Below are positions 2,408-51,600 of a stretch of DNA of 64,000 bases, in pieces (the stretch's first letter is position 1; every line of letters begins with the position of its first letter). The translations under genes were made by a program, and so were the position numbers. The stretch covers positions 328 through 64,327 of the forward strand of contig JBJEGC010000012.1 in the NCBI GenBank assembly GCA_051874695.1, read 5' to 3'. The notes under the pieces were generated by a model. The model had not been told where the DNA came from. It saw only the letters and a program-made list of their open reading frames with translations, and searched no databases. This stretch comes from Candidatus Bruticola sp. (lineage in GTDB: Bacteria > Vulcanimicrobiota > Xenobia > Xenobiales > Xenobiaceae).

Positions 2408-3883
2408 TTATTTTTTCTTACTCGGTTTTTTAAATATACTACTCAAGATGCCGTCGTTTCCGGATGAGGTGTTTTGGGATTCTTTCCCAGACGACTCCTT
2501 ATTATCCGCTGTTTCGTGAGCCTCAACCCTGGAACCGTCAGTTTCGTTAGGTTGCACTTGATCTTCCTTTTTGTATTCAAGTGTGCCGTTAACAATCATT
2601 TTTACCTGGCTCTTAGCCACTTCATGAGTAGACAACACGCACATGTGCGGAATATCATTACAGATCAGCTCCGAGACAAAACGGCGCAGCTCCGGAGTAG
2701 TAATGATAACGCTCGGATTACCTGCAGCATGAAGTTTTTCCTTGATACAGGATATAATGCGGTCTGTCAGAGTTTTGAGGTCATCGCTTGTTTCTGTACT
2801 GTTTTGTATATGCTTGAGTTTATGCAGGTCAGCTTCCAATTTATCGCCGGTTACTGCTGCCTGCAGTTCCTCGTTGGGAGTCAAATTGGACCAGCAGATT
2901 TGTCTGGCCAAGGCTAATCTGCAGCTTTCCGCCAGCTTTTCGATAACACTTTCTTTTAGGCTGATATGGTCAATCATACCGTCGCCTACAGTTTCTAAAA
3001 TGGTGACCATGTTGTTTAAAGCAACACGTTCGCGCAGCAGTGACTGTAGAACACGGCGTAAAATGCGGAGTTTTAAGCTGTCTTGAAGGAATTCATTGAC
3101 TACAATTGGATGGGTAATCTGTAAACGGGAAATTAAATTAAAGGTATCTTGCAGGCCCAGAAGTTCGGGAGCAGATTCTAGCATAACACTTTTCAGATGG
3201 GTGAGTAGTACCTGAAGTGGACTAACCAGCAGGCATCCCGACTGTTCAGCCTTCTCTCGAAGATCGGCTTCAATCCATTTGGCTTTCATGCGGTAGGTCG
3301 GTTCAATTGCTGCCCACCCTTCTAAGGCAGAAAGCTGCTCGAATGAACCTATAGCTAAGAATCTATCTAAGTAGAGCTCACCTGAGGCTATAGGGGAGTT
3401 ATGCAGTAAAATTTTGTAGCAGCAGGGATCGAGGTTTAAATTGTCCTTGATGCGCACACCAGCCGGAACTAATCCGGATTCTTTCGCTATTTCATCGCGC
3501 AGTCCCGGCATTGCTGCAACCAGAGGAGCACTGCACTGAGGATCGAGTAAAATTAACAATCTTTTGCCGAGTTCCAAAACAACAGGATCTTGATACACAT
3601 AGGGATCTATACCCGGTTCTGTGGATCCCTCAAACGACATAGTTAGCTCCCCGGCAACGTTCCAACCTTCGTTAACTAAGCGCATAAGGGCCTGTTGTAG
3701 CTCTGCATCCAGAACGCAGTTCTCACCGACATAAAGGAGGGCGTCTTCTTGGTCGCGAGTCATCTTTATGTACACTTGCTGGCCCCTCTCACTGCGTTTC
3801 CAGGGCATAAAATCGTCTTTGTAGCTCTTAAGAGAAAAGAGTTTTATTTCATTTGTTGTTTCATCTATTTGAGGAAGCGGCAT
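2408..3883 (-). CDS. FlhA/SctV-family cytoplasmic domain protein (FHIPEP C-terminal domain only, no transmembrane region)
   Basis: Colinear with FlhA residues about 350-690: LVPAGVRIKDNLNLDPCCYKILLHNSPIASGELYL matches LPPVVHIRDNMDLQPARYRILMKGVEIGSG, and LRILRRVLQSLLRERVALNNMVTILETVGD matches LHKVLQNLLAEKVPIRDMRTILETLAE. No hydrophobic segments. AGGAG lies 13 nt upstream of the ATG. Confidence 0.7.
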   Translation of the reverse strand: MPLPQIDETTNEIKLFSLKSYKDDFMPWKRSERGQQVYIKMTRDQEDALLYVGENCVLDAELQQALMRLVNEGWNVAGELTMSFEGSTEPGIDPYVYQDPVVLELGKRLLILLDPQCSAPLVAAMPGLRDEIAKESGLVPAGVRIKDNLNLDPCCYKILLHNSPIASGELYLDRFLAIGSFEQLSALEGWAAIEPTYRMKAKWIEADLREKAEQSGCLLVSPLQVLLTHLKSVMLESAPELLGLQDTFNLISRLQITHPIVVNEFLQDSLKLRILRRVLQSLLRERVALNNMVTILETVGDGMIDHISLKESVIEKLAESCRLALARQICWSNLTPNEELQAAVTGDKLEADLHKLKHIQNSTETSDDLKTLTDRIISCIKEKLHAAGNPSVIITTPELRRFVSELICNDIPHMCVLSTHEVAKSQVKMIVNGTLEYKKEDQVQPNETDGSRVEAHETADNKESSGKESQNTSSGNDGILSSIFKKPSKKK

Positions 3884-3957: not shown

Positions 3958-4782
3958 TTATATAGCCGGGGTGGGCTGAACGGAACCATCTTCAGGCATT
4001 GTCTCATGATAGTGCGGAGTCGGCACCGCCTCGGGAACTCCGCTGCTGTCTGCAGAAATTGAGTTGTCCTGAATTGCCTCCGAGCTCTCGGAGACACTTT
4101 GCGCGTTAGAAGCTGCATCGGAAATGCTGTCTGCTTCTTTCGGTACATAATCGGTGCTAGGAGAAGGTTCGTCTTCAGAAACTATGTTGGTCTCTACCGG
4201 CTCATCTTTGGGCTTTGATAAAGGAGTTCCTTCTAAAGGAAGGCTGATCACTTTGCTCGTCGGAGCCTTTTGACTGGCTCCGGGAAGATTAAAGTTGATA
4301 GGAGTTTCTGCTTCAATATAAGCTAATTCTCCGGAAGAAGTAAGGGCCAGATTAACTCCCAGCGCTTCTTTGAGGTAAGCAGCCAGAGGAGGGCAGTTGA
4401 CCGATTTTACATTGCCGGTTACTACCACTATGCTGCTGTTTGGGCTTTTATAAGCTTCTTCAGGAACATCGGAAGGAGCCTGTACCAAAATAGCCTCTGA
4501 GGGAGCTTTGGAGTTTAGCAAAATAAAGAAAGCCTTAATATTGTTAGGGGCCTGCCCTCCTAAGGCAGCCAAATGTTCCTTTATATCCGGAGCGGAACTG
4601 TACAGTGCCGTTCCTTCAATACTCTCGTAGCGGTCAGCAGCCGGAGATGACATTTTGAAGCTGCTGTTTTTTATAACAGTCGGAGCCGGTTTTGTGGCAG
4701 AATTTTTGCTGCAAGCGGGAGTGAAAAGAGCTGCAGCGCCGAGTAAAGCAATGAGTATAAAAGTTGAGAACTTACATTTCAT
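3958..4782 (-). CDS. secreted protein / probable lipoprotein with acidic Ser-rich C-terminal tail
   Basis: N-terminal signal peptide MKCKFSTFILIALLGAAALFTPAC, with a Cys after the hydrophobic core in a loose lipobox. The C-terminus is low-complexity and rich in D, E and S. Confidence 0.55.
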   Translation of the reverse strand: MKCKFSTFILIALLGAAALFTPACSKNSATKPAPTVIKNSSFKMSSPAADRYESIEGTALYSSAPDIKEHLAALGGQAPNNIKAFFILLNSKAPSEAILVQAPSDVPEEAYKSPNSSIVVVTGNVKSVNCPPLAAYLKEALGVNLALTSSGELAYIEAETPINFNLPGASQKAPTSKVISLPLEGTPLSKPKDEPVETNIVSEDEPSPSTDYVPKEADSISDAASNAQSVSESSEAIQDNSISADSSGVPEAVPTPHYHETMPEDGSVQPTPAI

Positions 4783-4891
4783 GTTATTTAGGCCTCAAAA
4801 TAAAAAGTTGTGCGGCAGGACCGCAGCCTATCTCTCTGGCGTCAATTAGCAAATACCAACTCTCGAAGTTCCTTATTTTGTGTAAATATCC

Positions 4892-7800
4892 TTGCATAGG
4901 AAAAGAGAGATCCTTTCTCGAAGGTTTCACGCAATGTCTAAGTTCTACACTATCGAAGAAGTTTCTGAATTAATCAACGTTCCGGCCGACGTTATTCGTG
5001 AATGGATAACTGAAGGAAAAGCATCTGCTTCCCGTCGTGCCGGCGATGTGGTTTTGCGTCATCACGAGGTTCAGCGTCTCCTAGCCGAATATGGAGAAAA
5101 TGATGACAGCGCTAAGGAAACCGGCAACACTGATATAAAAAGCGGCTCCTTAGATTCGTCGTCTAACGGTTACATTGGCGGATCTGCTCAAAATAATGCT
5201 GACGATCCGGCCAGTTACTACGGGTATCCCAATCCAGAGCCGGAACCTGAGCCCGAGCCGGAAGAAACAGAGAAATTTAAGCCTCCGACGGCCCCCACTC
5301 CGCCTTCGGGTGTAGGTGCCTCTCCGGCTAAACTTGTTTTGAATAGCCGAGCCGTTGCCATTGTGAACAGTATTCCCGATGGTCCGATCGATGGCGACGC
5401 TACCGTTAGCATTTCTGCGCCTATTACTTTTGAAAGCTTAGTAGGAACTGCCCCGGCTCTAGATTATTCGTCTTTTTACGATCGAGAACTCGATGAGTAC
5501 GAATCACAGTTGCGCTATTTGGAAATGGAACTTCCGCTGCGTCCCAGTTCTTCTGAAAATGGTTCGGCAGCCGATCAGCGTGTTTCTACGTCGAATTTAG
5601 ACGGTAGAAATGCCAAGGGCAGTGAAGATGAATCTATTAGCGCAGCTCAACTTGAGCATGCTATCGAGCGCACGGTTGAACCTTTGGCCAGAGCTCAAGC
5701 CAGACTCATCAAGTTGTTTAACGAGTCACGTGAAGAATCGCGGCGGCCTACAGCCCTGCCTGCTCCCGGCGGCAGTGCTTCCGACAAAGCTTTGGCTCGT
5801 ATAGAAGAGAAGCTCGCTAAAATGCAGAGCAAACTGGAGACTCCTACCGAATCGAACAATAAGCCTGCCAGTCTTTTAGCAGAAAACGTAACTAACAGCT
5901 TGCGCCAAGAACTAGCCTCTTTACGAACTTTCTGCGCAGAGCGTTTCACAGATATAAATGCTAAGCCTGTTGCTCCTTCTCAGGAAATTATCGATAGTTT
6001 GAAAGAGATAAAAGCCTCTGTAGACAGGTTGGCCGCTAAGCAGGATCCTTCGTCTATCAGTGTCGGCTTGAGCAGCTTACAGAAAAAGTACGATCTGCTA
6101 ACGCAGAAATATAACAATTTACGTATTGAGCATGAGCGCATGGCCCAAGAACACTCTGCTGTTAGTGAGGCCGGAGCTGATGTCGATGATATTCTGAACC
6201 GTTTAGAGGTACTGCGGGCTCCTCTCGATGCTTACGGCCTTGAAGTTGGCGATTTTATGGAAAAAATTGTCAGTCATATCGATGAGCTGAGTACAGCTAA
6301 GCGCGATTTGGTCAGAAAATACTCCGATTTGGAAAAGAATTACAGCGAGTGTGAGGCCCGTTATGAAGCTTGTGAAGAGGAGTCGTCTGCTTTCCAAGTT
6401 TTAGTCGGCAATCTGCAGCAGGAAAACCGTACTCTCAAAGACGAGCTTGATAATTTGGAAGCTGAAAATTCTAAAGCTAAAGAAGAACTAGTCGAGTTGG
6501 AAAATTTGCGCGAAACCTGTCTCAATTTGCAGCATACGGCTAGCGGTTCCGATGAGGCTTTCACCAAACTTCAAGAAGAGTATTTGGGCTTGCAAGAACA
6601 GAATAAAGATCTGCTTAGGAAATTGCAAAGCGCCGATAACGAGCTTAAAGATACGCTTTTAAAAATGCAGGAAGGCAAATCTGACAGTGCAGCTGCGGCA
6701 GCTGCTTTGCAGTCTGAACTGAGCAGTAGAGAAGAAGCGCTGCGCGATTTTGAGGCCCGCATTGAAGAGCTTTCTATCCAGTTAGGTAAAACGATTGAAG
6801 ATTATGAGGCCTCTTCAAGTGAGCTGAATGAAATGAAGTCTCTGCTTGGAGAAGCTAAAGAAGAGGCGGAAGAGGCCCGCAGCCAGTTGGCTCAGGCAAA
6901 TGAAGCCTACAACGACCTTTCAGAGGCTTACAAACAGAAAGAAGAAGAGGCTAAAGGAGCCAAAGCGGAGCTGTTGCAGCTGCAGACAGTGGTAAGGTCT
7001 ACTCGGGCTCAGTCAGCTGAATTAGAAAATATGGCTGCTGAAGCTCACAAAGAGGCCTCGGAAGCTTTAGCTAAGCTCAAAGAAGCTGAGAATCGTTTGG
7101 AAGAGGCCGAAAAAGATTTTGAGGCTCAGCAGGTAAAAACCGAAGAAGTTGAGGCCTCCAGGGAGGAACTTCGAGAACAGCTGAGTTTAGCTCAGAGAGA
7201 GACTGAGGAACTCTTGGCTAAAGCTCAAGAAGAGAGTCAGCAGGCTTTAGAGCTTATGCAAAGTGAGCTTGAAGCAGCTAGGGCGAAAGCTGAAGCCAGT
7301 GCTATTGAACTGGCTCAGCAGATTGAAAGCATGGCAGCCAAAGATAAGGCTATCATGGAAACTTCTGCCAGGATGGAAAGTGAAAAAGTGCGCCTATTGA
7401 GACGAATTAATACGCTCCAGGCCAAAAATGAAGCTTTACAGGCAGAAATTGAAGAAAGTCACGAGTTAGGCAACAGCTACGAGTCTGCTAAAGTTGTAGA
7501 GTTGCAGGATCGTCTTGAGGCTGTTACTTTCGAACTCAATGAAACTAAAGACAAGTTAAAAGAATATGAAGAACGTGGTGCCACCGACGGTAGCGGTAGT
7601 CTGGAGCTAGAGGAAGCTTTAAACCAGCTGCAGACTTTAAAGTCTGAAAATGACGAGCTGCGTTACGAACTGTCAGTGCGCGATAATGCCGATGATTTGC
7701 ATAAGCAGTCAGCCGAGATGCTGGAAGCGATAGCTAATTTTGAAGCTGAGAATGCAGAGAAAGATCGCCTTATCGAGGAGTCGCACCAAGATCGGGCTCG

Positions 7801-7987
7801 TTTGCGCGAGGAGTTGGAGCGTGTTAAGCAGTCTCTCTTTGAGCAGCAGCAGCTTTACGAGCGTGAGCGCAAAGAGTGGTCTGAAATTTTAGCTAAGCAG
7901 GTTAAGGGAGAAGGCGTTGACACTGGAGTAGATTCTCCGCGTCGAAGTGGATTTAAACTGTTTAGAAATAGGGGTGGTTCTATTTAG
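4892..7987 (+). CDS. HTH (MerR/excisionase-type) DNA-binding domain fused to a (PE)n linker and a 750-aa coiled-coil protein
   Basis: The N-terminal FYTIEEVSELINVPADVIREWITEG...RHHEVQRLL matches the HTH_17/excisionase fold. PEPEPEPEPE follows. From about aa 250 to the end the sequence is E/K/A/L/Q-rich heptad-like, as in SMC arms or myosin tails. Likely true start: the ATG at about 4934 (MSKFYT). Confidence 0.8.
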   Translation: MHRKREILSRRFHAMSKFYTIEEVSELINVPADVIREWITEGKASASRRAGDVVLRHHEVQRLLAEYGENDDSAKETGNTDIKSGSLDSSSNGYIGGSAQNNADDPASYYGYPNPEPEPEPEPEETEKFKPPTAPTPPSGVGASPAKLVLNSRAVAIVNSIPDGPIDGDATVSISAPITFESLVGTAPALDYSSFYDRELDEYESQLRYLEMELPLRPSSSENGSAADQRVSTSNLDGRNAKGSEDESISAAQLEHAIERTVEPLARAQARLIKLFNESREESRRPTALPAPGGSASDKALARIEEKLAKMQSKLETPTESNNKPASLLAENVTNSLRQELASLRTFCAERFTDINAKPVAPSQEIIDSLKEIKASVDRLAAKQDPSSISVGLSSLQKKYDLLTQKYNNLRIEHERMAQEHSAVSEAGADVDDILNRLEVLRAPLDAYGLEVGDFMEKIVSHIDELSTAKRDLVRKYSDLEKNYSECEARYEACEEESSAFQVLVGNLQQENRTLKDELDNLEAENSKAKEELVELENLRETCLNLQHTASGSDEAFTKLQEEYLGLQEQNKDLLRKLQSADNELKDTLLKMQEGKSDSAAAAAALQSELSSREEALRDFEARIEELSIQLGKTIEDYEASSSELNEMKSLLGEAKEEAEEARSQLAQANEAYNDLSEAYKQKEEEAKGAKAELLQLQTVVRSTRAQSAELENMAAEAHKEASEALAKLKEAENRLEEAEKDFEAQQVKTEEVEASREELREQLSLAQRETEELLAKAQEESQQALELMQSELEAARAKAEASAIELAQQIESMAAKDKAIMETSARMESEKVRLLRRINTLQAKNEALQAEIEESHELGNSYESAKVVELQDRLEAVTFELNETKDKLKEYEERGATDGSGSLELEEALNQLQTLKSENDELRYELSVRDNADDLHKQSAEMLEAIANFEAENAEKDRLIEESHQDRARLREELERVKQSLFEQQQLYERERKEWSEILAKQVKGEGVDTGVDSPRRSGFKLFRNRGGSI

Positions 7988-8020
7988 AACTTTTAGTTCT
8001 TAAATTAAGAGCGCCAGTAG

Positions 8021-8059
8021 AGCGGTTTGCTTTATGTTAAGGTAGACCGCTTTTTTTTT
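8021..8059 (+). terminator. rho-independent terminator
   Basis: Hairpin AGCGGT...ACCGCT followed by T9. Confidence 0.55.
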
Positions 8060-8136: not shown

Positions 8137-9819
8137 ATGGGGCAAAAAGATAAAAATTCCACCGATATAAAGCAACTGGGGCTAGTTGCCGCACTAATGA
8201 GTTTGGGCTATGTATTCTGGGTAGTCGGTGCTATGGAAATGGTAGAGCGCTTGGCTTATTATGGCGTACGTGCAGTAGCTGGCCTTTATGCAACAGCTCC
8301 CGTATCTGAAGGAGGTTTAGGAGTTACTGCTGCCAAATTCGGTATCATTTTAATGGTTTGGTCTGGTTTTCAAGGCTTTATTCCAATCTTTGTCGGTGGC
8401 TTAGCCGACCGTTATGGATATAAGCTTATGATTGGCATCTCTACAGCTGTGAAAATGAGTGCTTATCTGATTATGGCAGCTTTTCCTACTTTTTATGGCT
8501 TTTTAGTAGGCGCTGTATGCTTAGCTACAGGTACAGCTATATTCAAACCCGGTATTCAAGGCACTTTGGCAAAAGCTACTAAGCCGGAAAACAGTTCCAT
8601 GGCTTGGGGAGTTTTCTACCAAACGGTTAATATTGGAGGCTTTATCGGTCCTGTATTAGCCGGCTTTTTAAGAAAAATGGAGTGGAGCCATGTCTTTTTG
8701 GCTTGTGCCATGATTATTGCCTGTAATTTTTTGCTGTTATTAACTTATAAAGAACCGGGCTTAGAAGAACGCTTGGCTAAAGCCAAGGAGCGTGAGGCTA
8801 AAAAAGAAAAGCAGAAGAATATAGTTTGGGAAACTATTAATGAATTGCGCCGTCCCCATTTGTTTGTATTTTTGGCCATTTTTACCGGTTTCTATTTTAT
8901 GTTTAACTGCATGTTCGATGTACTGCCTCTTCACATTCGAGATTGGGTTGACAGCCGTGATGTAGTTTCCACCGTGTCGCATTTCCTCAATACTGATAAT
9001 GCCGTAGTCGGTTTTATCATGATTTTAGATAAGACTAAATCGTATATTCAGCCTGAAGGCATGTTAAATTTGAACTGCGGCATGATTATGTTTACTTGTT
9101 TCTTCTTTGCTTGGTTGTCATCTAAAATGCGCATTCTGCACAGTATAGCTTTGGGTACGGCTTTGGCTGCTGTTTCTATGTGCTTAATTGGCATATCTCA
9201 TATGGGCTGGTTCTGCCTGTTGTCTATTGCCGTTTTCAGTGTCGGTGAAATGATGTCTAGTCCTAAATTTAGTGAGTTTGTAGGTACTCATCTGGCTTCG
9301 CATGATAAAAAGGGAATGTACTTAGGTTTGGGCCAGATGTCTTTTGCTATAGGCTCCACATTGGAAGGGTTGGTTGCTCCTCGACTGTACGATAAGCTGG
9401 CTTCTAAAGATACTTTTTCCAGACAAATGCTGGTTGATAGTAATTTAATGACTTCTGCTCAAGCAGAGGCTATTAAGCCTGGTGAGGCTTTTGAACAACT
9501 AGTTTCTTTGAGTGGCCGAAGCGCCGACGAGTTGACTCAATTTATGTACCATCACCACAATGTAGCCAGCATGTGGGAAATTATGGCTTGTATCGGTTTT
9601 GCTACTGCAGTACTCATTTTAATCTATGCTGTTTGGTGGGCTAAAACTGGACACAGTGCCGCTGTAGCAGATTCTGCTCAAATAAAAGATGCGGATGGTG
9701 AAAGTAGCAGCTCAACTGAACAAAAACTATCAGTATCAGCTTTATCCGAACAGGCGACAGATGCAGAGTCTACTCGGAATACTAAGGAGCAGAAGGTAGA
9801 TAGTTCCGGAAGTCATTAA
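8137..9819 (+). CDS. MFS transporter, POT/PTR2 (peptide transporter)-like
   Basis: ERLAYYGVRA is a POT signature (ExxERFxYYG). GGLADRYGYK motif present. 12 or more hydrophobic segments, plus an acidic C-terminal tail. Confidence 0.7.
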   Translation: MGQKDKNSTDIKQLGLVAALMSLGYVFWVVGAMEMVERLAYYGVRAVAGLYATAPVSEGGLGVTAAKFGIILMVWSGFQGFIPIFVGGLADRYGYKLMIGISTAVKMSAYLIMAAFPTFYGFLVGAVCLATGTAIFKPGIQGTLAKATKPENSSMAWGVFYQTVNIGGFIGPVLAGFLRKMEWSHVFLACAMIIACNFLLLLTYKEPGLEERLAKAKEREAKKEKQKNIVWETINELRRPHLFVFLAIFTGFYFMFNCMFDVLPLHIRDWVDSRDVVSTVSHFLNTDNAVVGFIMILDKTKSYIQPEGMLNLNCGMIMFTCFFFAWLSSKMRILHSIALGTALAAVSMCLIGISHMGWFCLLSIAVFSVGEMMSSPKFSEFVGTHLASHDKKGMYLGLGQMSFAIGSTLEGLVAPRLYDKLASKDTFSRQMLVDSNLMTSAQAEAIKPGEAFEQLVSLSGRSADELTQFMYHHHNVASMWEIMACIGFATAVLILIYAVWWAKTGHSAAVADSAQIKDADGESSSSTEQKLSVSALSEQATDAESTRNTKEQKVDSSGSH

Positions 9820-9892: not shown

Positions 9893-11371
9893 TTAGCAAT
9901 GTGTGTGCACACGGCGATATGTTTCACAGAGCTGAGAGCTAGGAGAAGCATTAAGATATTTTTTCATATTTTTTCTAAATACGTTAAAGGTTTGTATAGC
10001 CAGTTGTGGCTGGCATGCGGCTGCATAAGCACACATTAAAATTTGAACGCACTGTTCATTGAGAGGATCAAGAGAAGCTGCCTGCGAGGCAGTTTCAATT
10101 GCTGCTGACCAATCTTTTTGGCTGTATTCATGCTTAGCTAATTCAAGTAGGGCCTGTTGTGAAATGTAGTCGAGTCTTACTCTTTTCATTTCTGCCCATT
10201 CCATAGAACATTGGCACAAAAAATGCCCCTGGCTCAGTTTCTTGATAGAAATAAGGTGTTGAAGCAGCTTTTGCGATCGATATTCTGACCAATGCTGTTC
10301 CAATACGAGCCAATCTGCTTCTATATGAAGTTTAGAATTGAGCGCTAGTGAAGCTGAACTGCGTATTATGGGTATGAAATTGGGACAGACCTGACGAAAG
10401 ATTTTTTTTATGACAGATACGGCTTTCCAAAGATTTGTCTGCCCACCGCTGTCTGGCCAAAACTCTTCAATAAGTTGATCTGCACTGAAGTCAGTATGGC
10501 TGCTTGCCAAGCGCAGAAAAAGATATTTGATTTTTTGAGTTACCCACATTTTGTCGTCAATGGGTTGACCGTTCAAGCTGATACGGCATTGACCTAAGAG
10601 GGACAACTCAAGCTTGGGGAGTTTCTGTTCAGAAGCTCCTGGCAGATCTTGGACCGATGACATGGAAGAAATTATTATTTGGCGGGCTAAAGCAAATTTT
10701 GGATGGAAGTAATTCTGCGTAAAACTGCCTTCCCAAAGCTCTTTATCTGGTAGAGCGAAATCATTATTTTGCTCCCATTTCAGGGTACGCAAAACAGCAT
10801 TAATTTCAATTTCTTGTACGGTAGGAGCATCGAGCCCGGCTTGTATGGCCAAACGTTTAGCTACTGAACTAATATGTTGGGCTGTCTTAATGACTTGGGT
10901 GGAAAGTTCACCCTTACAGAAACTACCGAGCAGAGTTTTGATAGACCACGAGTGCAAGGCCTGCAGGCGCAGATTGTACTCGCAATTTTGTCGGTAGCGA
11001 ATGTTTTGTCTTATTAAACAGAATACTACTGCTAAAAAAGTTTTCAGTTCGAAGGGTTGACGCAGACAATCTGTCGTACCCGGATGGAGGGCTCTGATCG
11101 AATCTTCCTCACTGGCATTTCTGGTTATAACCAGAACCGCCGCCTCTCTGAGATGACTTTGTACCGTTAAGACGGGCAGCAAGGCCTCGGGATTGTCAGT
11201 ACAAGTATCTAGCACAATTAGATCGAATGATTTACGCGAGGAGATCGCGACAGCGTATTCCCCCCTGGACGCAGCCGTCACCTCAAACCCTTCGTCTTGA
11301 AGAGCGCGGCTGAGCATATTTCTCAGGGAAGCGTCATCTTCAAGCACCAGGATTCGTGCTGTCTTGATCAC
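9893..11371 (-). CDS. response regulator with receiver domain, winged-helix and BTAD (SARP-like) C-terminal domain
   Basis: The N-terminal ILVLEDD...FDLIVLD is a CheY-like REC. The middle region resembles an OmpR-type winged helix (LSLLGQCRISLNGQPI...LWKA). The C-terminal ...DWSAAIETASQAASLDPLNEQCVQILMCAYAAACQPQLAIQTF is BTAD-like, as in AfsR/DnrI. Confidence 0.65.
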   Translation of the reverse strand: MIKTARILVLEDDASLRNMLSRALQDEGFEVTAASRGEYAVAISSRKSFDLIVLDTCTDNPEALLPVLTVQSHLREAAVLVITRNASEEDSIRALHPGTTDCLRQPFELKTFLAVVFCLIRQNIRYRQNCEYNLRLQALHSWSIKTLLGSFCKGELSTQVIKTAQHISSVAKRLAIQAGLDAPTVQEIEINAVLRTLKWEQNNDFALPDKELWEGSFTQNYFHPKFALARQIIISSMSSVQDLPGASEQKLPKLELSLLGQCRISLNGQPIDDKMWVTQKIKYLFLRLASSHTDFSADQLIEEFWPDSGGQTNLWKAVSVIKKIFRQVCPNFIPIIRSSASLALNSKLHIEADWLVLEQHWSEYRSQKLLQHLISIKKLSQGHFLCQCSMEWAEMKRVRLDYISQQALLELAKHEYSQKDWSAAIETASQAASLDPLNEQCVQILMCAYAAACQPQLAIQTFNVFRKNMKKYLNASPSSQLCETYRRVHTHC

Positions 11372-11502
11372 GCTTCCCTAATTAGCTATTAGAAGTAATT
11401 TTTTCCTGCTTGCATACGATGGTTAAATTTCCAATTTATTTCAGCTTCAAGTAGTATAAACAATTTGTACAGGAAACTGTTTTGTTAGGGGGAGGGAAAA
11501 GT

Positions 11503-11898: not shown

Positions 11899-12525
11899 TT
11901 GAGCTATATATGCCAAATTGGGGGGTCAAAATTGAATAACCATTCTGATTCGGTTTGGAAAGTTCTCTCAACGTTGTCATTGCGCTGTTTAAATGCGCAC
12001 AAATTAGCAGAAATCAGACATACTGGTCTGACTTTGCTTAAAAAAGAACGTGGCGGCAGTGCCATCATTATGTCAATATTTATTATTACTATTATGATGA
12101 TTTTAGCCGCCACCTACCTGATGTCTCTGCAAACCGAGCGCCATTTTTCTGCAGTTCAGGAGCGCCGTCTGCAAGCCTGGTATTTAGCTGAATCGGGGCG
12201 AGATTATTTCCTCAATTACTGTAGTATTGGTTCTGCCGATACTTTATTGGCTGCACCGGGCAACACTTTAAAAGCGACGCAACCTGGTGAACATGGGGAG
12301 CTTATTTTAGCTAAAGTTTGCGTGCCAGAGTATTCTGCTAATTATTACTTTGAAATATCTTCACTTAAACCAAATGTTATTTGTGTGAGGGGAGTTGTTT
12401 ACGACACATTAAGCAGCAGTGGCCAGCCTGCCTGTTTAGAGAAAAAAATCTATTTGACTGGCAGTTTTTCAAAGGGGTGGGGAAATGCTTTCTACGATAA
12501 ATTGGCTGAGGAAAACGAAATATAA
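11899..12525 (+). CDS. minor pseudopilin-like protein (PilX_N / GspK-like hydrophobic N-segment); start uncertain
   Basis: ERGGSAIIMSIFIITIMMILAATYLMSLQTE resembles PilX/GspK N-termini (QRG-ALIV...). Annotated TTG start; alternative starts at about 11932 or 12070. Confidence 0.5.
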   Translation: MSYICQIGGSKLNNHSDSVWKVLSTLSLRCLNAHKLAEIRHTGLTLLKKERGGSAIIMSIFIITIMMILAATYLMSLQTERHFSAVQERRLQAWYLAESGRDYFLNYCSIGSADTLLAAPGNTLKATQPGEHGELILAKVCVPEYSANYYFEISSLKPNVICVRGVVYDTLSSSGQPACLEKKIYLTGSFSKGWGNAFYDKLAEENEI

Positions 12526-13162
12526 TCAGCGCGGAGTCACTATCATTGAGTTGTTGATTTGCTGCGCTTTAACGGTAACTTTTTTAGGTTTGGTAGGGCG
12601 ATTAGCTTCGGCGGCAGCTGAAAATTACAAGCATAGCGAAAAAGGAATGAGGGCCATGCGCTCGGCAGCCTTAAGTGCGGAAAACATGAGCTGCGATTTG
12701 CGTTTATGTCAGAGTATTCTATGGCCCAAGGTAAGCTCTGAAAAGTGGCTCCAAGGATATTCTGTGAAAGGTGATAGTCAGGTCGCCTTCAAGTTCATTT
12801 TTAGACAATCTCCTCCGGTAGGCGGTGCGCCATCCATAATCGGTTACCATTGGGATTCGGTCAGTCGGGAACTGACTAAATGTATCTATCGCCCTAATTT
12901 TAATCCGCAGGCGAGCAATTTGAACGACTCCGGACAGATCATTTCTCAAAAAATTTTAGCACGCGATCTGTCAGCTATTTCCATTAATTCGGTAAACTGT
13001 CGTCTGCGCGGAGGAGCACAATTTTTAGAACTGAGCTTAACTGTTTCATTTAATGAACTAGATCGGGGGCTTCGCAAACTAAATAATATTTCAACTCAGC
13101 CTCCTGAACTGTTCAAGAGTATTTATACACAGTTCGAAATCAGGGAGGGGGCGTCTTTATGA
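12485..13162 (+). CDS. type IV pilin-like / T2SS pseudopilin (prepilin N-terminal cleavage/methylation motif)
   Basis: QRG|VTIIELLICCALTVTFLGLVG is a canonical G|xTxxE prepilin leader plus hydrophobic helix. Overlaps the upstream gene. Confidence 0.65.
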   Translation: MLSTINWLRKTKYNQRGVTIIELLICCALTVTFLGLVGRLASAAAENYKHSEKGMRAMRSAALSAENMSCDLRLCQSILWPKVSSEKWLQGYSVKGDSQVAFKFIFRQSPPVGGAPSIIGYHWDSVSRELTKCIYRPNFNPQASNLNDSGQIISQKILARDLSAISINSVNCRLRGGAQFLELSLTVSFNELDRGLRKLNNISTQPPELFKSIYTQFEIREGASL

Positions 13163-14424
13163 AAAGACAAGGTCAGTTTGCTTATACGCTTATAGAGCTA
13201 ATGGTCGGTCTGTTTCTGATTTTTTCTGCTGCCAGTTGCTTATTTAGCACTTACGCTTTTGGAACTAAAGCTAATTTAGGCACCGATCGCTTCACTACAG
13301 CTATAAATTTAGGACAGGCCAAAATGGAAGAGCTGCAAAGCCGTCCCTATACATCTCTGCCTGATCGACAGCAGGGTAAATTCGCCCAACCTTACCAGAA
13401 TTACAGTTGGAGTGCCGATCTTTCGGATTTTAGTGAAGACTTCGCTTTGCTCACTCTTTACACCGGTTATAACGGGGCACCTCTATGTACTCTGCGTCGT
13501 TTGTTGGCTAAAGACTGCCCGTCTTCAATTTCTGCTCACATTTACGATAGTGAGGCGTCCTTTACCGATCGAACTTTTAGTTCTCCTTTTGGTAAATATA
13601 ATTTTTGGCTAACTCGTTCTGTCGAGCAGAAACTTGTAGGCAGTTTTCCCAAAGGAGAAATGGGAGCCATGTGCGGTTATCCCGCGCAAGGTATTGTCTG
13701 GCTGGCATATTTGCGCCAGCCTAAGCTGTGTCGGCTTATATTTGATGGCGACGGCAATCATATAGGAACTAAATTGGTTAATGTGCCTAAGCTGACTTAC
13801 GGATACGAAGCTGATATTGTCGATATGGCCGCCGATCAAATGGGGTGCTTTGTGTTTTGTGCCGATAGGGCTAATCAGTCAGTGTGGGTTCTAGATGATT
13901 CTCAGAATCAGGGACAGGTTTCATGGAGCAACGGTAGGTGTTTAACTAGTCGACTCAATCCTCTAAAAGATTTGCGATCTATTGCCTGCGATCAATATGG
14001 GACTTCTGCCTGGATCTGTGAGGGGCAGCCTCGTCGCTTGCGTCAATTCTATTGGGGCAGTTTACCCAAAAGTTTTGAGGAAAAAATCAATAATTATGCA
14101 GCTTGGGGGAGTTGTTTTGAGGTGCCTTTTTCCGGTTCTGGTCGCCTTCACAGTGTGGCCGTCAATAGTTGGGGATCGGCGGTCTATACCATCGACAACA
14201 ATTTTCTATATGGCTTGCTTTTTCAGGAGTGTAGCGGCCTTGGACAGTGGTCTAAAACACCTATGCCGTCTGAATTATGCCGTTCCGCTCCCAGAGCCCT
14301 GTGGGTCGATCCCGGCAGCAGCATAATTTATATCAATACTTTGTACGGAGGACAATGGGCTGCTAAACCACTCACTGATGGTTCTCTATCTCCGTCTTGT
14401 TTCAGCAAACTTAGTTGGAGGTAG
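13159..14424 (+). CDS. large pseudopilin-like protein with non-canonical prepilin N-terminus
   Basis: MKRQGQFAYTLIELMVGLFLIFSAAS looks like a GspI/PilV N-terminus, but with spacing G-Q-F-A-Y-T-L-I-E. ATGA-type start/stop overlap with the upstream gene. Confidence 0.55.
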   Translation: MKRQGQFAYTLIELMVGLFLIFSAASCLFSTYAFGTKANLGTDRFTTAINLGQAKMEELQSRPYTSLPDRQQGKFAQPYQNYSWSADLSDFSEDFALLTLYTGYNGAPLCTLRRLLAKDCPSSISAHIYDSEASFTDRTFSSPFGKYNFWLTRSVEQKLVGSFPKGEMGAMCGYPAQGIVWLAYLRQPKLCRLIFDGDGNHIGTKLVNVPKLTYGYEADIVDMAADQMGCFVFCADRANQSVWVLDDSQNQGQVSWSNGRCLTSRLNPLKDLRSIACDQYGTSAWICEGQPRRLRQFYWGSLPKSFEEKINNYAAWGSCFEVPFSGSGRLHSVAVNSWGSAVYTIDNNFLYGLLFQECSGLGQWSKTPMPSELCRSAPRALWVDPGSSIIYINTLYGGQWAAKPLTDGSLSPSCFSKLSWR

Positions 14425-15455
14425 TGTCTATGGAAAAAATATTTTTATATCGCCAGCTAGGTGTTATGTTAGGTTCAGGAGTTCCCATTGTTAAAGCCTT
14501 GGAGTCTGCTGCCGGGTGTTGCAAATATTATAAAGATAAGCAAGTTTGGTATGAAGCTGCCGAAGCGGTCAGTCGCGGAGAAAATCTGACTCAAGTTTGG
14601 AGTTCAAACCCTAACTATTTTGAAATGATAGAAACTGGCCTTATTAGAGCAGGGGAAGCTTCTTGTTCAGTAGCCGAAATATGTCTGTACATTTCAGAGT
14701 TTTTTTCATTTGAGCTGCATATGAAGCGGCGATTAAGGGGAGCTCTTCAGTATCCTTGTGTAGTTTGCTTCAGTTTTATTGTGCTGAGTATTATGATGTC
14801 ACTCTATATTGTACCTTCATTTTCTCCGGTATTTGCCGCTCTGACCGATTTGCCCTGGTCTACATCTGTTTTACTGCTTTTTATCAATTTGCTAAAAAGT
14901 CCGCTATTCTGGATTTTGATTGGAACTGCTATTTTAGGATTTTGGGTATTTTTTAAGTTTTACCGCCGGTTTGCTTTGGTCCGGCGCCAGTGGCAGCTGC
15001 TTGTTTTGACTACTCCGCTGCTGGGTAAAATAGTCAAAAATATTGTAACAGCTCGTTTTTGCCACACTATGTCTATGTTGGTGCGCAGTGGCCTGCCCTT
15101 AAACAATTCATTACAGATTGCCGGACTGTCTTTAGCCAACTATCCTTTGGCTGCAGCTTTAGAACTAGCTGCTGCGGAAATAGATGAAGGTTCGGAATTG
15201 AGCCAAGCGTTGCAGGCAGGAGGTTACTTTTCGTTATCATTTATAGCTGCTTTGAACGTAGGATCGGAATCAAGTTGCCTTGACTGCGTTTTTGAGCGTC
15301 TCAGCCGCTCTTATAATGAGCAGGTAAAGTTAGATATTGAGAAATTGTCAGTATATATAGAGCCTGTAATGATAGCCGTTATGGGAGTCGCCACAGCCGC
15401 AGTACTTTTCGCTTTATTTGCACCTCTTTATGAGTACATTAATAGGCTGACTTAA
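14415..15455 (+). CDS. type II secretion / type IV pilus platform protein GspF/PilC family
   Basis: Two T2SSF-type repeats (FLYRQLGVMLGSGVPIVKALE...; ...TARFCHTMSMLVRSGLPLNNSLQIAG...) and three hydrophobic helices. 10-nt overlap with the upstream gene. Confidence 0.8.
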   Translation: MEVVSMEKIFLYRQLGVMLGSGVPIVKALESAAGCCKYYKDKQVWYEAAEAVSRGENLTQVWSSNPNYFEMIETGLIRAGEASCSVAEICLYISEFFSFELHMKRRLRGALQYPCVVCFSFIVLSIMMSLYIVPSFSPVFAALTDLPWSTSVLLLFINLLKSPLFWILIGTAILGFWVFFKFYRRFALVRRQWQLLVLTTPLLGKIVKNIVTARFCHTMSMLVRSGLPLNNSLQIAGLSLANYPLAAALELAAAEIDEGSELSQALQAGGYFSLSFIAALNVGSESSCLDCVFERLSRSYNEQVKLDIEKLSVYIEPVMIAVMGVATAAVLFALFAPLYEYINRLT

Positions 15456-15481
15456 AGATAATTTTAAGGGGGAGGGAATGG

Positions 15482-16531
15482 ATGTCAGATAAACCTTTCA
15501 TTATTCTTTGCGATCAAGATTCTGCTATCGGAGACTTACTTTTTTGCACTTTGCAAAAATTAGCGGGGAGAATAAGCCGTCTTAGAGGGCGCTCTTCACT
15601 TCTGGCGGCTGAGTTGTTAGAGCGGCGTGCAGACTTGTTAATAGTAAACGGCACTGCTAAGGTCGGCGAATTGCTGCATATTATGCGTTGCTGTAAGGCA
15701 AAATATCCCGATCAAAAACAAATTTTTATTACTGCTGTTTTTGAAGGCTATGAAGAAGAGCTGAAAGCAACTCAATTGGACGGTTTAATTTTTAAACCGT
15801 TTAAGATTAACCAACTAAATGATATGGTAGCAGGTTTGCTTCCTAGCCTTAATAGAGCAAATCAGCAGGTCTCTGTCGATGTTATTAGCCGAATTGAACA
15901 ATTGAGCAAAATAAAAATAGCGGTTGTCATGCAATACTTGAAGTCTTGGTTAACCACACTACAAACTGTTTGGCACAACTTCAGTCTTAGAGAACTTGAA
16001 AATGAACGCCTTATAACTTTAAAAACTGTTTATCGTTTTTGTTTGTCCAAGTTTTCTAGCTACCGGTTTGCTTTAAAATTGTGGCATTATTTAGAGTTTT
16101 TGGAGCGTCATTATCTGCTTATCAAGGGAGGAGCCGATGTCGAGCGGGAGGCGCTAAAGTTCCATTACACTATGTTAAAGAGCAAACTGGAGAGAGGAAT
16201 GCAGGGCAAGTTTATCTCTATGGGTGAAGGAGACGGATTCGGGCCTAAGCTCGATCTTGTCCAATTCGGTCAGTTTTATGAGCGCTTGCGCCGTCAAGAA
16301 GTTAGCTTCGGCTGCTTTCGTTTAGCCGCTCAGGCTAGGCTGGTGCGATGGGCTTGTGATCGGCCTCCTATGAATGAGCTAAAATATTGGGCTCAAGGAC
16401 GTCGCTGTTTAGAGCGTCACAGACATTTATCCTACAAAGCCAGTGTAGCTGAAGCCGAAGCTGAGCTGAAGTTTTTGGCTGCTGCGAGTGAGCCGGGGCT
16501 ACAGGAGGTATTCAGCCAAGTTTGGGGATAA
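15482..16531 (+). CDS. receiver-like (pseudo-receiver) domain protein of unknown function
   Basis: The N-terminus IILCDQD...ADLLIVNG...IFITA...LIFKPF follows the CheY fold pattern, but has N where the phospho-acceptor Asp is expected. GGGGGAGGG RBS. C-terminal domain unknown. Confidence 0.5.
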   Translation: MSDKPFIILCDQDSAIGDLLFCTLQKLAGRISRLRGRSSLLAAELLERRADLLIVNGTAKVGELLHIMRCCKAKYPDQKQIFITAVFEGYEEELKATQLDGLIFKPFKINQLNDMVAGLLPSLNRANQQVSVDVISRIEQLSKIKIAVVMQYLKSWLTTLQTVWHNFSLRELENERLITLKTVYRFCLSKFSSYRFALKLWHYLEFLERHYLLIKGGADVEREALKFHYTMLKSKLERGMQGKFISMGEGDGFGPKLDLVQFGQFYERLRRQEVSFGCFRLAAQARLVRWACDRPPMNELKYWAQGRRCLERHRHLSYKASVAEAEAELKFLAAASEPGLQEVFSQVWG

Positions 16532-38695: not shown

Positions 38696-41017
38696 TTACT
38701 CAAACATTGAATCGAGTTCTGCCATCTTAAACTTCTCCGGTTCATGGCCGGTCCAATCTATTACAAAGTATGTACGACAAGGTAGGGTCATTTTGCTAAA
38801 ATAGCGTATTTGTTGGGTAGGAATCATTTTTTTGTACCCATAATACCAGCCTACAGGAACAGGTGGAGTGTTAGAGCCTTTATTGCACAGATGGCGGGTC
38901 CCTTTAGGAAAAAAGGGCATAACTCTGGCACTAAAAGAATTACCTACAACTTTACATCCCATGTCGCTACGCATAACGAAGTGAAGGTGAGGCGCAAAGA
39001 GCAAACTGCTGCCAAATTCAATAGTGACCTCCGGGTCTCCGCAGCTTATCGTATCCCTGATAACCAACATTTGCTGATTCGATTTTAAGAGCAGCTCGCG
39101 TCCAATGCTTATAAGCATTCCGTTGTTGAGCTTGGCTTGTCGCTTGGCTTTAAAAATAATGTCTCCACCAAGCGTACTTCTGTAGAGCGGGGAGCAGAAT
39201 AAGCGGTTTCCCTTATCAATATCTTCTATAGAGTCGGGGCACAAACTCGCTTCGCTGCTATTAAGATCTTCCTGACGCGCCACCTCAAAAGGTCTAATTT
39301 CACCTTTGATAACGGGAGTTGAATGTGAGAAAAAGCTATTTAAGTAAGCGGAAGTTTTACCATAATAGTCAGGGAAGCCGGAGTCTATTAAGAAAGGCTC
39401 ACCCTTCACATTAACAATCACTGACAAGAAATCGCAATGAGTCGCTTTGGGACTGGCAGCTTGATTAGGGGGATTATAGAAATCTCGGCTGTAGTTTCTT
39501 GGCTGGCATCCTCTAATAATAGCCTGGGAGCCAGATTCTTCCCAAGTGTCTCTGACAACTCCCAAACCTGCAGCTGAAAAATAAAACTGATTTGTCTTAG
39601 GAGCATAGGGAATAATCTGGTTGAACATTTCCGAGGCGTTAGGACCTACCCACCACAGAAGTTCACCAGGCATATTTTTGATGGCATAGGACCATTGACC
39701 GCAGTTCAAGGCGATAGCCCCCAAACATAGCAGATTCTGCGCATATTCAAAACTTGAGTAGGCAAATCGGCCTAAAAATCCGGGAGGACTATAAGTTCCT
39801 ATGTTAGGGATGAGTGGATGTGGTACAGGCTTGCTCGTTTTCGCTGTTCCGTCAGTATTTTGAAAGGGATTATAGCTTATATGCTTGATAACTCTGTTCG
39901 TTCCGCTTATGGCTTGTAGGGCCTGGAGAGCCTTAATGCAAGCTTCTGTCAGAAAAACCGGGGGAGACGTTTGGGTGCGCATATGCTGCACAATAGGCAG
40001 AAGTAGCCATTCCATAGCGGAACAGTGGACGCATAGGGAAGCACTAAGATGCAATCCGTTGCTGTCAAATTCCCTTTTTATAAGCTCAGGTAATTTAGAT
40101 TTCGCTAAATTCTGCCATCGTTCAGCCAGCTTAAGCTCCGGGAAATTGACGGCAAACATGTATAGGCAGGAAGCTGCTGGCAACGATAAGGTCTGATCGT
40201 GCGTCAGGTGCCAGCTTAAGGCCGATGCATGTAAGATCATGGTCTTAAGGACTTCTGCAAACAGAACTGGAGTTACAACCCGACTGTTCAGGCACATATT
40301 GATAGCTATCATCCAGTTCATCAGACGCACCGCTACAGTATCGAAATTGAGCCAGTTAACCCCTATCCAGAGAGGGTTGCTTTTGCTCCAGCTGATCGCC
40401 TGTATCATTACTTCTGCGGCGTAATTGTCTTGTTGAGCCAGCCAAAAAGAGCGCGCTAGTGTCAAAAAATGAAAATGCTGATTTAAATCCCAAGTACGAT
40501 CGAAAGAGACAAAACCGCCGCGCTGTTTTTCGCTATCGGAATAGAGTTCCTTTAGGAGTTTTTTTACGTGAATGTTGGGACAACTGCCTGAGTGGAAGTC
40601 GTAGAACCAGTCTATATCTTGGCCTAAAGCTACAGGTTTTTCTGTATCGTAGGGACAAAAAATATGCCTCATTGCTTGTGAGGCAGGGAGCTCTGTAGCT
40701 TTAATTACATTGGGAAAATATTCAAAACGTTCTCTGAGCAGATCTTGCTCTGAGCTGCGGAGAAAAAACACCGGAGTACTGCGGCCGCGAAAGTAATTGA
40801 GAAGTGCTTTCGCGGCCAGTTCCGGTTGTTCGTTATGATAATGATTTTTAGCTTCCCCGATTCCGCGCACATTAGAGAATTGGCCGTATAAGTAGCCGTC
40901 TTCGAGCCTGTACTCAGACTCATTCTCATAAGCGAACTCTACCTGCCCCTCTAATTTAAACAAGGGCCTGACAGGGTCTATAATACTTTTGCGAAACCAG
41001 GGAAACATTTTATTCAA
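38696..41017 (-). CDS. heparinase II/III-like (alginate-lyase-fold) family protein
   Basis: 773-aa protein. The N-terminal alpha/alpha toroid region is W/F/H-rich and the C-terminus is beta-rich, as in Hepar_II_III proteins in surface-glycan loci. Domain assignment is by recall, not by a search. Confidence 0.5.
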   Translation of the reverse strand: MNKMFPWFRKSIIDPVRPLFKLEGQVEFAYENESEYRLEDGYLYGQFSNVRGIGEAKNHYHNEQPELAAKALLNYFRGRSTPVFFLRSSEQDLLRERFEYFPNVIKATELPASQAMRHIFCPYDTEKPVALGQDIDWFYDFHSGSCPNIHVKKLLKELYSDSEKQRGGFVSFDRTWDLNQHFHFLTLARSFWLAQQDNYAAEVMIQAISWSKSNPLWIGVNWLNFDTVAVRLMNWMIAINMCLNSRVVTPVLFAEVLKTMILHASALSWHLTHDQTLSLPAASCLYMFAVNFPELKLAERWQNLAKSKLPELIKREFDSNGLHLSASLCVHCSAMEWLLLPIVQHMRTQTSPPVFLTEACIKALQALQAISGTNRVIKHISYNPFQNTDGTAKTSKPVPHPLIPNIGTYSPPGFLGRFAYSSFEYAQNLLCLGAIALNCGQWSYAIKNMPGELLWWVGPNASEMFNQIIPYAPKTNQFYFSAAGLGVVRDTWEESGSQAIIRGCQPRNYSRDFYNPPNQAASPKATHCDFLSVIVNVKGEPFLIDSGFPDYYGKTSAYLNSFFSHSTPVIKGEIRPFEVARQEDLNSSEASLCPDSIEDIDKGNRLFCSPLYRSTLGGDIIFKAKRQAKLNNGMLISIGRELLLKSNQQMLVIRDTISCGDPEVTIEFGSSLLFAPHLHFVMRSDMGCKVVGNSFSARVMPFFPKGTRHLCNKGSNTPPVPVGWYYGYKKMIPTQQIRYFSKMTLPCRTYFVIDWTGHEPEKFKMAELDSMFE

Positions 41018-51538: not shown

Positions 51539-51600
51539 AAAATTTCCTATAATGAAAGATCACAATCGCTGACAGAATTAAGATAACTATTTATAAGCTG

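Follow-up and report, generated by a model that had tools for sequence, protein, structure and literature searches.

A Long Coiled-Coil Protein With a MerR/Xis-Type Winged Helix-Turn-Helix Head in Candidatus Bruticola, a Possible Nucleoid-to-Envelope Tether

Candidatus Bruticola, an uncultured gut bacterium, belongs to the class Xenobia of the phylum Vulcanimicrobiota (formerly Eremiobacterota). Within a 64,000-nucleotide (nt) stretch of one Candidatus Bruticola sp. genome (GenBank assembly GCA_051874695.1, contig JBJEGC010000012.1, positions 328 to 64,327, hereafter the window), an open reading frame (ORF) that opens with TTG runs on the + strand at 4892-7987 and encodes a helix-turn-helix (HTH) head joined to a very long coiled coil. 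A first reading made from the letters alone (the sequence-only reading) described an excisionase/MerR-type HTH, a spacer, and a long rod without a motor, and fold, disorder, and helix predictions have since borne out this architecture. The same reading proposed that the protein anchors chromosomes or plasmids as a cytoskeletal element. Our own tentative interpretation is that it tethers the nucleoid to the cell envelope.

The ORF is real and its end was correctly placed, but its start moves downstream. The N-terminus MSKFY is found in 22/22 close homologues and matches an ATG at 4934. The 42 nt that separate the TTG from this ATG (4892-4933) lie within an upstream stretch conserved across species, where a 1-nt indel relative to other species shifts the reading frame, indicating that these nucleotides are non-coding. 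The homologue N-termini and the upstream indel together make TTG 4892 an unlikely start, and translation most likely begins at ATG 4934, yielding a product of 1017 amino acids (aa) that is 100% identical to the NCBI entry 'hypothetical protein ACI38Q_03250 [Candidatus Bruticola sp.]' (a genome from a metagenome). The whole protein has a net charge of -85 and contains no signal peptide, transmembrane segment, LPXTG motif, or hydrophobic segment (maximum Kyte-Doolittle 19-residue mean 1.17); its predicted location is cytoplasmic. The window around the gene is core chromosome and also encodes ackA, mutL, dnaG, rpoD, Sua5, and a DEAD-box helicase, and the synteny of the gene is kept in 10/10 Xenobia species loci. 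Such a location makes the plasmid-anchoring part of the sequence-only proposal unlikely. Scans of the window for tRNAs and Rfam families gave no matches. The gene and the parts of its product, numbered from the ATG, are the following:

4934..7987, + strand: gene for the HTH/coiled-coil protein, 1017 aa, stop codon included (start corrected from TTG 4892)
4934..5092, + strand: predicted MerR/Xis (BldC)-type winged HTH head, aa 1-53 (Pfam, AlphaFold2, Foldseek, conservation)
5093..5641, + strand: predicted disordered acidic linker, aa 54-236 (AlphaFold2, charge, conservation)
5204-5227, + strand: DPASYYGY motif, aa 91-98 (conserved within Xenobia only)
5234-5263, + strand: (PE)5 run, aa 101-110 (sequence)
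within 5444-5539, + strand: LDYSSFYDRELDEYESQLRYLEMELPL motif, aa 176-202 (conserved within Xenobia only; predicted helix at 184-199)
5642..6244, + strand: five shorter predicted helices with proline breaks, aa 237-437 (AlphaFold2, sequence)
6245..7903, + strand: proline-free heptad-repeat rod, aa 438-990 (heptad scan, AlphaFold2, conservation)
7364-7465, + strand: conserved SEKxRLLRRINTLQAKNEALQAEI segment, aa 811-844 (family alignment)
7688-7903, + strand: family-defining C-terminal helix, aa 919-990 (family alignment)
7904..7984, + strand: flexible linker and then basic-aromatic tail RRSGFKLFRNRGGSI, aa 991-1017 (conservation, charge; AlphaFold2 confidence score, pLDDT, <50)
8019..8053, + strand: terminator-like stem-loop of 16 pairs followed by a T-run, just past the stop codon

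The HTH gene is probably monocistronic.

The head is confidently modeled as a MerR/Xis-type winged HTH fold. Pfam MerR_1 matches aa 5-49 at 24.5 bits (cut-off 21.6), whereas the HTH_17 domain named in the sequence-only reading reaches 20.9 bits, under its cut-off of 27; the excisionase model TIGR01764 scores 19.1 bits, under 28.8, and excisionase PHROG families match weakly. AlphaFold2, run on an alignment of nine sequences of the family, predicts aa 1-57 at a pLDDT of 90 as a strand, two helices, a two-strand wing, and a further helix. A Foldseek search of the PDB with this model places BldC first (template modeling (TM) score 0.76-0.79, root-mean-square deviation 1.5 Å, 29% identity), followed by Rv2175c, NmlR, RacA, mycobacteriophage Xis, SoxR, CarH, GlnR, and BmrR. 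The best structural matches are all DNA-bound heads of the MerR superfamily, among them RacA (PDB 5i44; TM score 0.71, structural-alignment identity 16-18%), and a profile search of PDB sequences recovered the same proteins weakly (E 0.004-0.07). AlphaFold2 and Foldseek thus agree that the N-terminal region matches an HTH fold, as first read from the sequence. Within Xenobia, R22, R34, R35, and R42 are invariant, and among 17 aligned family members R35 is invariant and R34 nearly so (≥90%); the conserved arginines fall in helix 2 and the wing. We infer that the head binds DNA.

Directly after the wing comes an acidic linker (net charge about -23 over aa 54-250) in which AlphaFold2 predicts disorder at aa 54-182 and 202-236. 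The (PE)5 spacer and low-complexity region noted earlier are both present, with predicted disorder surrounding the PE run. In family members outside Xenobia (P0024-P0058), a strongly basic (E/D)RRRxxGRRxxD(F) sequence between head and rod replaces the acidic aromatic motifs and may be an auxiliary nucleic-acid-binding element.

Predicted helices then cover aa 237-990. Prolines interrupt them at 250, 272, 276, 278, 304, 311, 345, 348, 372, and 430, and aa 431-1001 are proline-free. The EPLARAQARL helix (aa 249-258) is present family-wide, and a LNRLEVLRAPLDAYGL break lies at aa 421-436. AlphaFold2 draws the long helices at 438-579, 586-844, 850-884, 888-916, and 919-990, with four very short breaks between them, and a heptad-register scan puts 67% of aa 241-1000 above the 95th percentile of shuffled sequence, far beyond chance. 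The continuous 750-residue coiled coil first described from about aa 250 therefore stands as to its helical extent and strong heptad signal, but the uninterrupted rod amounts to only ~550 aa (438-990). Fully extended as a coiled coil, its 553 aa would measure ~82 nm. The terms 'filament-forming' and 'cytoskeletal' found no support in the present analysis.

Long heptad rods invite a reading as a secreted or surface coiled coil (M-protein, S-layer) or as an SMC-like or defense-type (Wadjet, Lamassu) coiled-coil ATPase, and PspA, SMC, Rad50, JetC, and LmuB models do give weak, sub-threshold matches. These matches fall only in arm regions, those to SMC and Rad50 being confined to the coiled-coil arms of the models, and lie far under the cut-offs (e.g., 42 versus 567 bits); Rod_CreS matched one homologue faintly. 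No Walker A motif was found in the protein, which lacks the ATPase head halves that SMC, MukB, Rad50, JetC, and LmuB carry at both ends, in agreement with the headless rod of the sequence-only reading. The HTH begins at residue 1, and the protein has neither the signal peptide nor the wall or membrane anchor of M protein and PspA, so that the surface-protein possibility raised in the sequence-only reading also falls away. PADLOC and PHROGs returned generic HTH matches and SMC-arm noise only, and no partner genes of such systems lie nearby. A surface or SMC-like identity is effectively refuted by these sequence features, and we regard it as vanishingly unlikely.

The helical region ends in a conserved domain of ~100 residues (EKDxLIQ..R..LR.EL...QRA.YELQQ....E..EWSE.LAR.I) that matched no family in Pfam or the PDB beyond coiled-coil noise; the same searches gave no signal for FliJ, FliH, or another flagellar family. 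At the extreme C-terminus, behind ~10-25 low-complexity residues, lies the tail, the sole basic part of the protein. In the window it contains GFKLFRNRGG and carries a net charge of +4, and its family consensus is G[W/F]xLF[K/R]x[R/K]G. Its composition approximates that of MinD-type membrane-targeting peptides, and we consider it a candidate membrane-targeting or partner-binding peptide. Two further ideas were rejected: a beta-clamp-binding motif of the QLxLF type, for which the glutamine is absent, and a mimic of the FtsZ C-terminal peptide, for which the DIP residues are absent. Membrane targeting fits the tail better than either, since a similar tail occurs on a neighboring protein that resembles the FlhA cytoplasmic domain (FlhA_C).

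Close homologues, 852-1164 aa long and 33-79% identical, were found in metagenomes of gut and rumen. When each species was represented by a single genome and scanned with Xenobia-specific peptide patterns, a design under which the results are silent on wider taxonomy, 10 loci emerged; all belong to uncultured organisms of gut or rumen, whose genomes submitters had labeled Candidatus Bruticola, UBP9, Candidatus Eremiobacteraeota, 'uncultured bacterium', and, in one case, Riflebacteria. The last label, 'Candidatus Riflebacteria bacterium' on L003 (CAAGRW010000067.1), is probably wrong, because the locus is syntenic with Xenobia/UBP9 loci and its protein is 64% identical to theirs. An exhaustive hidden Markov model search with an N-terminal profile of 270 residues against 1.84 billion cluster representatives recovered three Xenobia representatives plus long proteins of the same overall plan, which make up at least 13 further 50%-identity clusters outside Xenobia. 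Twelve are complete (392-1175 aa), and the thirteenth, P0028 (563 aa), ends before the C-terminal signature. The gene call for P0030 (L011, 9965-10003) is 5'-truncated; an in-frame ATG 36 nt upstream restores an MSKYLSIEEVA N-terminus. Word-indexed protein searches with C-terminal and full-family profiles returned fragments or the known Xenobia set only and did not extend the family.

The plan common to members comprises the head, an EP[LI]ARxQAR helix, an LxRLExLRxPLDA break, an ESERxRLLKRxNTLQAK segment, the C-terminal domain, a linker of ~10-25 residues, and the tail. Across the 17 aligned members, conservation is high at the head (0.61), C-terminal helix (0.60), and tail (0.57) and low in the rod (~0.30), whose length ranges about fivefold, from ~150 to ~750 residues. 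Conserved ends joined by a rod of variable length are the signature expected of a spacer or tether. The G+C content of the distant loci is 53-69%. The family is probably phylum-wide, the distant members being assigned to the phylum from one related fragment named 'Candidatus Eremiobacterota bacterium' and from shared synteny. We found no database name, Pfam or NCBIfam model, or paper for this HTH/coiled-coil family, which appears to be undescribed.

We propose that the protein is a cytoplasmic tether joining the nucleoid to the cell envelope and acting like RacA, RocS, and RicO, a reading that we hold tentatively and with some reserve. The winged-HTH head would bind DNA, and the disordered acidic linker of ~180 residues would give it mobility, with the two aromatic-acidic short motifs of the Xenobia linker probably docking partners. 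The ~750 helical residues, including ~550 uninterrupted, would oligomerize as a coiled coil and form an extended spacer of ~80-110 nm, with the conserved C-terminal helical domain beyond the rod. The basic-aromatic tail would fix the opposite end at the cytoplasmic membrane, either on its inner face or through a partner associated with it, a step suggested by tail conservation and by the likeness to targeting peptides of the MinD type. The protein would thereby link chromosomal DNA to the envelope and position or organize the nucleoid or origin, as RacA, RocS, and RicO do in Firmicutes. Likely partners would be the lipoprotein and the soluble FlhA_C-like protein encoded divergently from the HTH gene, the latter perhaps by direct interaction.

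This proposal has precedents. In RacA, RocS, RicO, and pSK1 Par, a winged HTH of the MerR type is joined to a coiled coil (PMC4914108, PMC11500499, bioRxiv 10.64898/2026.03.06.710092), and the last three possess a C-terminal amphipathic helix besides (PMC11500499; bioRxiv 10.64898/2026.03.06.710092). RocS (S. pneumoniae), RicO (S. aureus), and pSK1 Par act as DNA-membrane anchors for chromosome or plasmid segregation, with the module order that we propose for the window protein. The RocS helix binds membrane only after coiled-coil oligomerization, a single amphipathic helix being insufficient (PMC11500499; bioRxiv 10.64898/2026.03.06.710092), and the window protein, with a short tail beyond a long rod, would obey this rule if the rod oligomerizes. 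RacA, the sporulation anchor of B. subtilis, likewise has a MerR-like head followed by a coiled coil and tethers DNA to the cell pole (PMC4914108), as proposed here, but it lacks an amphipathic tail and is anchored via DivIVA, whereas the window protein ends in a basic-aromatic tail.

The differences are equally clear. RocS, RicO, and Par are Firmicutes proteins of ~150-250 aa, whereas the Vulcanimicrobiota protein of 1017 aa has an extra disordered linker of ~180 aa, a rod several-fold longer, and a C-terminal helical domain of its own, and its tail is distinct in sequence from their helices and has no predicted helix. RacA, too, is short, at 184 aa. Pfam and NCBIfam scans found no match to DUF536 (RocS, Par) or to a RacA model, the comparison with RocS and RicO being by family model. 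The gene of the window protein is linked to an FlhA_C-like gene, and such a protein is not among the partners described for RocS, RicO, or Par (PMC11500499; bioRxiv 10.64898/2026.03.06.710092). Judged by these comparisons, the protein is an analogue of RacA, RocS, and RicO in logic and not a demonstrable member of their families.

Several observations weigh against a DNA-to-membrane tether. First, the head is slightly acidic (net charge -2, isoelectric point 5.6) and the adjoining linker strongly so, which is unusual for a DNA binder, and among distant family members only some have basic heads. Second, CbpM, a protein-binding MerR-like fold, is among the Foldseek matches to the head, and an hhalign comparison of the head profile with the RacA DNA-binding domain gives a probability of 44% over 27 columns, a similarity at the superfamily level only. 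Third, AlphaFold2 gives the tail no helix, and some members carry a proline within the tail motif (WRLFKPRGG) that would shorten any helix; the hydrophobic moment of the tail lies within the range of targeting peptides, yet does not exceed that of its own shuffles, and because genuine targeting peptides behave likewise the measure has no discriminating power. Finally, the window yielded no candidate for a centromere-like repeat. The sequence-only idea of a 'nucleoid tether or segregation scaffold' gains the four precedents and a conserved C-terminal tail that it had missed, while DNA and membrane binding stay predictions and both head and linker are acidic.

The remaining protein classes to which the architecture bears a likeness match it in part. 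BldC (Streptomyces) and phage Xis are the closest to the head in structure and sequence, but they are single-domain proteins of ~55-70 aa that multimerize head-to-tail on DNA and have no linker, rod, or tail. Classical MerR regulators share the winged-HTH fold but have an antiparallel dimerization helix right after the wing and a C-terminal effector domain, whereas the window protein has neither and is predicted to be disordered at aa 54-182. Scy, FilP, crescentin, and SMC arms are also heptad rods hundreds of residues long but lack a DNA-binding head of this type, and no homology to them was found beyond coiled-coil composition. The protein is not a classical MerR regulator, SMC-type protein, or surface protein, nor is it an excisionase, HTH_17 and TIGR01764 scoring under their cut-offs and 1017 aa being far from a single domain.

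On the opposite strand, the HTH gene faces a divergent operon of three genes that encode a lipoprotein, a soluble FlhA_C-like protein, and a weakly matching major facilitator superfamily (MFS)-like protein, so that the ORF map and Pfam matches confirm the divergence from an FlhA-domain/MFS operon noted from the sequence. The first two genes of the operon, and relatives of the second, are:

3958..4782, - strand: lipoprotein, 274 aa (signal peptide, lipobox Cys24)
2408..3883, - strand: soluble homologue of the FlhA cytoplasmic domain, 491 aa, second gene of the divergent operon (Pfam FHIPEP, PDB match)
L011 7149-8621, L012 7871-9244, L014 4007-5401, L015 95-1480, L016 1-1452, and L020-L031: FlhA_C-like homologues elsewhere

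The lipoprotein consists of a conserved domain of ~140 aa and a variable, disordered Pro/Ser/Ala-rich tail, and its lipobox cysteine is invariant. It matched no family in Pfam or NCBIfam, and the neighboring lipoproteins of different loci are homologous to one another. Its gene is always sandwiched between the FlhA_C-like gene and the HTH gene. The FlhA_C-like protein aligns with positions 326-655 of the 657 in the FHIPEP profile (E 7e-63), and the best PDB match of its family is the B. subtilis flagellar FlhA_C 3mix (E 3e-75, profile positions 97-431). It has no transmembrane segment and no membrane domain. A novel, conserved N-terminal domain of ~95 aa (F.PW.R.ERGQQ...RLVNEGW.V.GE...DPYVYQD) precedes the match, and the proteins, 426-550 aa long, are 43-50% identical across deep branches. 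They end in Gly/hydrophobic/basic tails (KKGRGITGLFGRK, GLLGRLRGG; GILSSIFKKPSKKK in the window) that are MinD-like and resemble the tail of the HTH protein.

The next gene downstream of the HTH gene, at 8137-9819 (+), encodes an MFS transporter that is conserved much more strongly than the products of the genes around it: its identity across Xenobia is 70-92%, whereas that of the HTH protein is 35-79%. In the distant loci L012, L015, and L016, too, the HTH gene is followed by an MFS gene.

These neighbors suggest a second reading, in which an undescribed complex at the envelope would contain the HTH protein as a structural subunit alongside the FlhA_C-like protein and the lipoprotein; the HTH head would bind protein, or DNA only secondarily, and the rod would serve as a stalk, ruler, or scaffold. 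The gene pair stands beside the HTH gene in 9/9 informative Xenobia loci from the HTH-seeded genome scan and in seven of the eight informative distant loci found with the same seed (L013 lacks the pair), and searches seeded with the FlhA_C-like protein found a divergent HTH gene beside it in all nine informative metagenome loci. The shared tail type and the acidic head in Xenobia also favor a complex, as does the ability of MerR-like folds such as CbpM to bind protein. Flagellar FlhA_C is a ring former, and its ring binds coiled-coil ligands such as FliJ. Set against these points, the pair is missing from L013, the C-terminal domain shows no FliJ, FliH, or other flagellar-family signal, and the wing arginines of the DNA-contact type are kept (R35 invariant, R34 nearly so). 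Moreover, wider synteny extends across the phylum, the window, L018, and L019 all having polysaccharide deacetylase and MutL genes downstream, so that adjacency may reflect a stable gene order; because this longer-range order is also conserved, adjacency of the pair alone is no proof of shared function. We consider such a complex possible but doubtful.

The two readings can be joined. The HTH protein, the orphan FlhA_C-like protein, and the lipoprotein could form one undescribed, phylum-conserved nucleoid-to-envelope module, in which an export-gate domain, detached from its membrane part, would be re-used in chromosome or envelope organization; we think this unlikely. To our knowledge, the FlhA cytoplasmic domain is otherwise known only from type III secretion and flagellar export gates. 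No other flagellar genes were found in the window or in the loci examined, Vulcanimicrobium alpinum, so far the one species of the phylum in culture, has no flagella (PMC9758169), and a literature search on orphan soluble FlhA homologues found nothing relevant.

The region ahead of the HTH gene contains one further conserved feature:

4869..4907, + strand: upstream non-coding element of 39 nt, TTCCTT.TTT..TG.AAAT.TCCTTGCATAGGAAAAGAG (invariant at nearly every position in an alignment of eight Xenobia species)

The HTH proteins encoded by these eight species are only ~61-79% identical. The core of the element is TCCTTGCATAGGA, and it includes a TGCAA-N6-TTGCA inverted repeat in seven of the eight, the window copy having TGTAA in the first arm. 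Its conservation makes it a candidate promoter or operator. The window has a single copy, other partial matches being at chance level; a two-mismatch copy at 11407-11419, within chance expectation, lies upstream of a response-regulator/BTAD gene. That gene (9893-11371, -) encodes a 492-aa response regulator whose receiver and BTAD domains are separated by ~250 unannotated residues, and in the distant locus L016 a BTAD protein is also encoded downstream of the MFS gene.

The element bears on a third reading, that the protein is a transcription regulator of its own promoter, the divergent operon, or both, in which the coiled coil oligomerizes and the tail sequesters the protein at the membrane. 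Its head is of the MerR/Xis/BldC class, BldC is a transcription factor (PMC5859096), the divergent arrangement is the classical layout of regulator and target and is conserved here, and the element with its inverted repeat (perfect in seven of the eight species) is kept nearly invariant between proteins of only ~61-79% identity. The rest of the protein fits poorly: a rod of 550-750 residues with a conserved far-end domain and tail is needless in a regulator and without precedent among regulators, the rod varies about fivefold in length while the ends stay, and a disordered linker takes the place of the MerR dimerization helix and effector domain. In the distant loci, no equivalent element or common operator is recognizable in the intergenic regions, one of which is just 46 nt. 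We judge regulation to be quite improbable and prefer the tether, as did the sequence-only reading, which favored an anchor over a transcription factor; given the conserved divergence and the ~40 upstream nucleotides invariant among Xenobia, the protein may nevertheless have a regulatory role.

Elsewhere in the window, five co-directional genes at 11899-16531 (+) yield a single family match, T2SSF/PilC-like at 14415-15455. They are syntenic in other Xenobia loci and may be a cluster for a type IV pilus or for a system like type II secretion, the partner genes being unannotated. A run of four radical-SAM enzymes, of which two have B12-binding domains, is encoded with flanking DegT-type aminotransferases (47197-52632 (-), 52748-54763, and 41030-42133 (-)). 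A heparinase II/III-like protein at 38696-41017 also flanks this run, which is probably a sugar- or glycan-modification cluster.

Anchors of the RacA, RocS, and RicO type have been studied in Firmicutes only, and their wider distribution is a stated gap (bioRxiv 10.64898/2026.03.06.710092). If the tether proposed here is real, the family would represent an independent version of such an anchor, with a far longer rod, in the barely cultured phylum Vulcanimicrobiota/Eremiobacterota, and rods that range from ~150 to ~750 residues between conserved ends would constitute a natural experiment on tether length. Should the link to the FlhA_C-like protein prove functional, it would be the first role for this domain outside the type III export gate.

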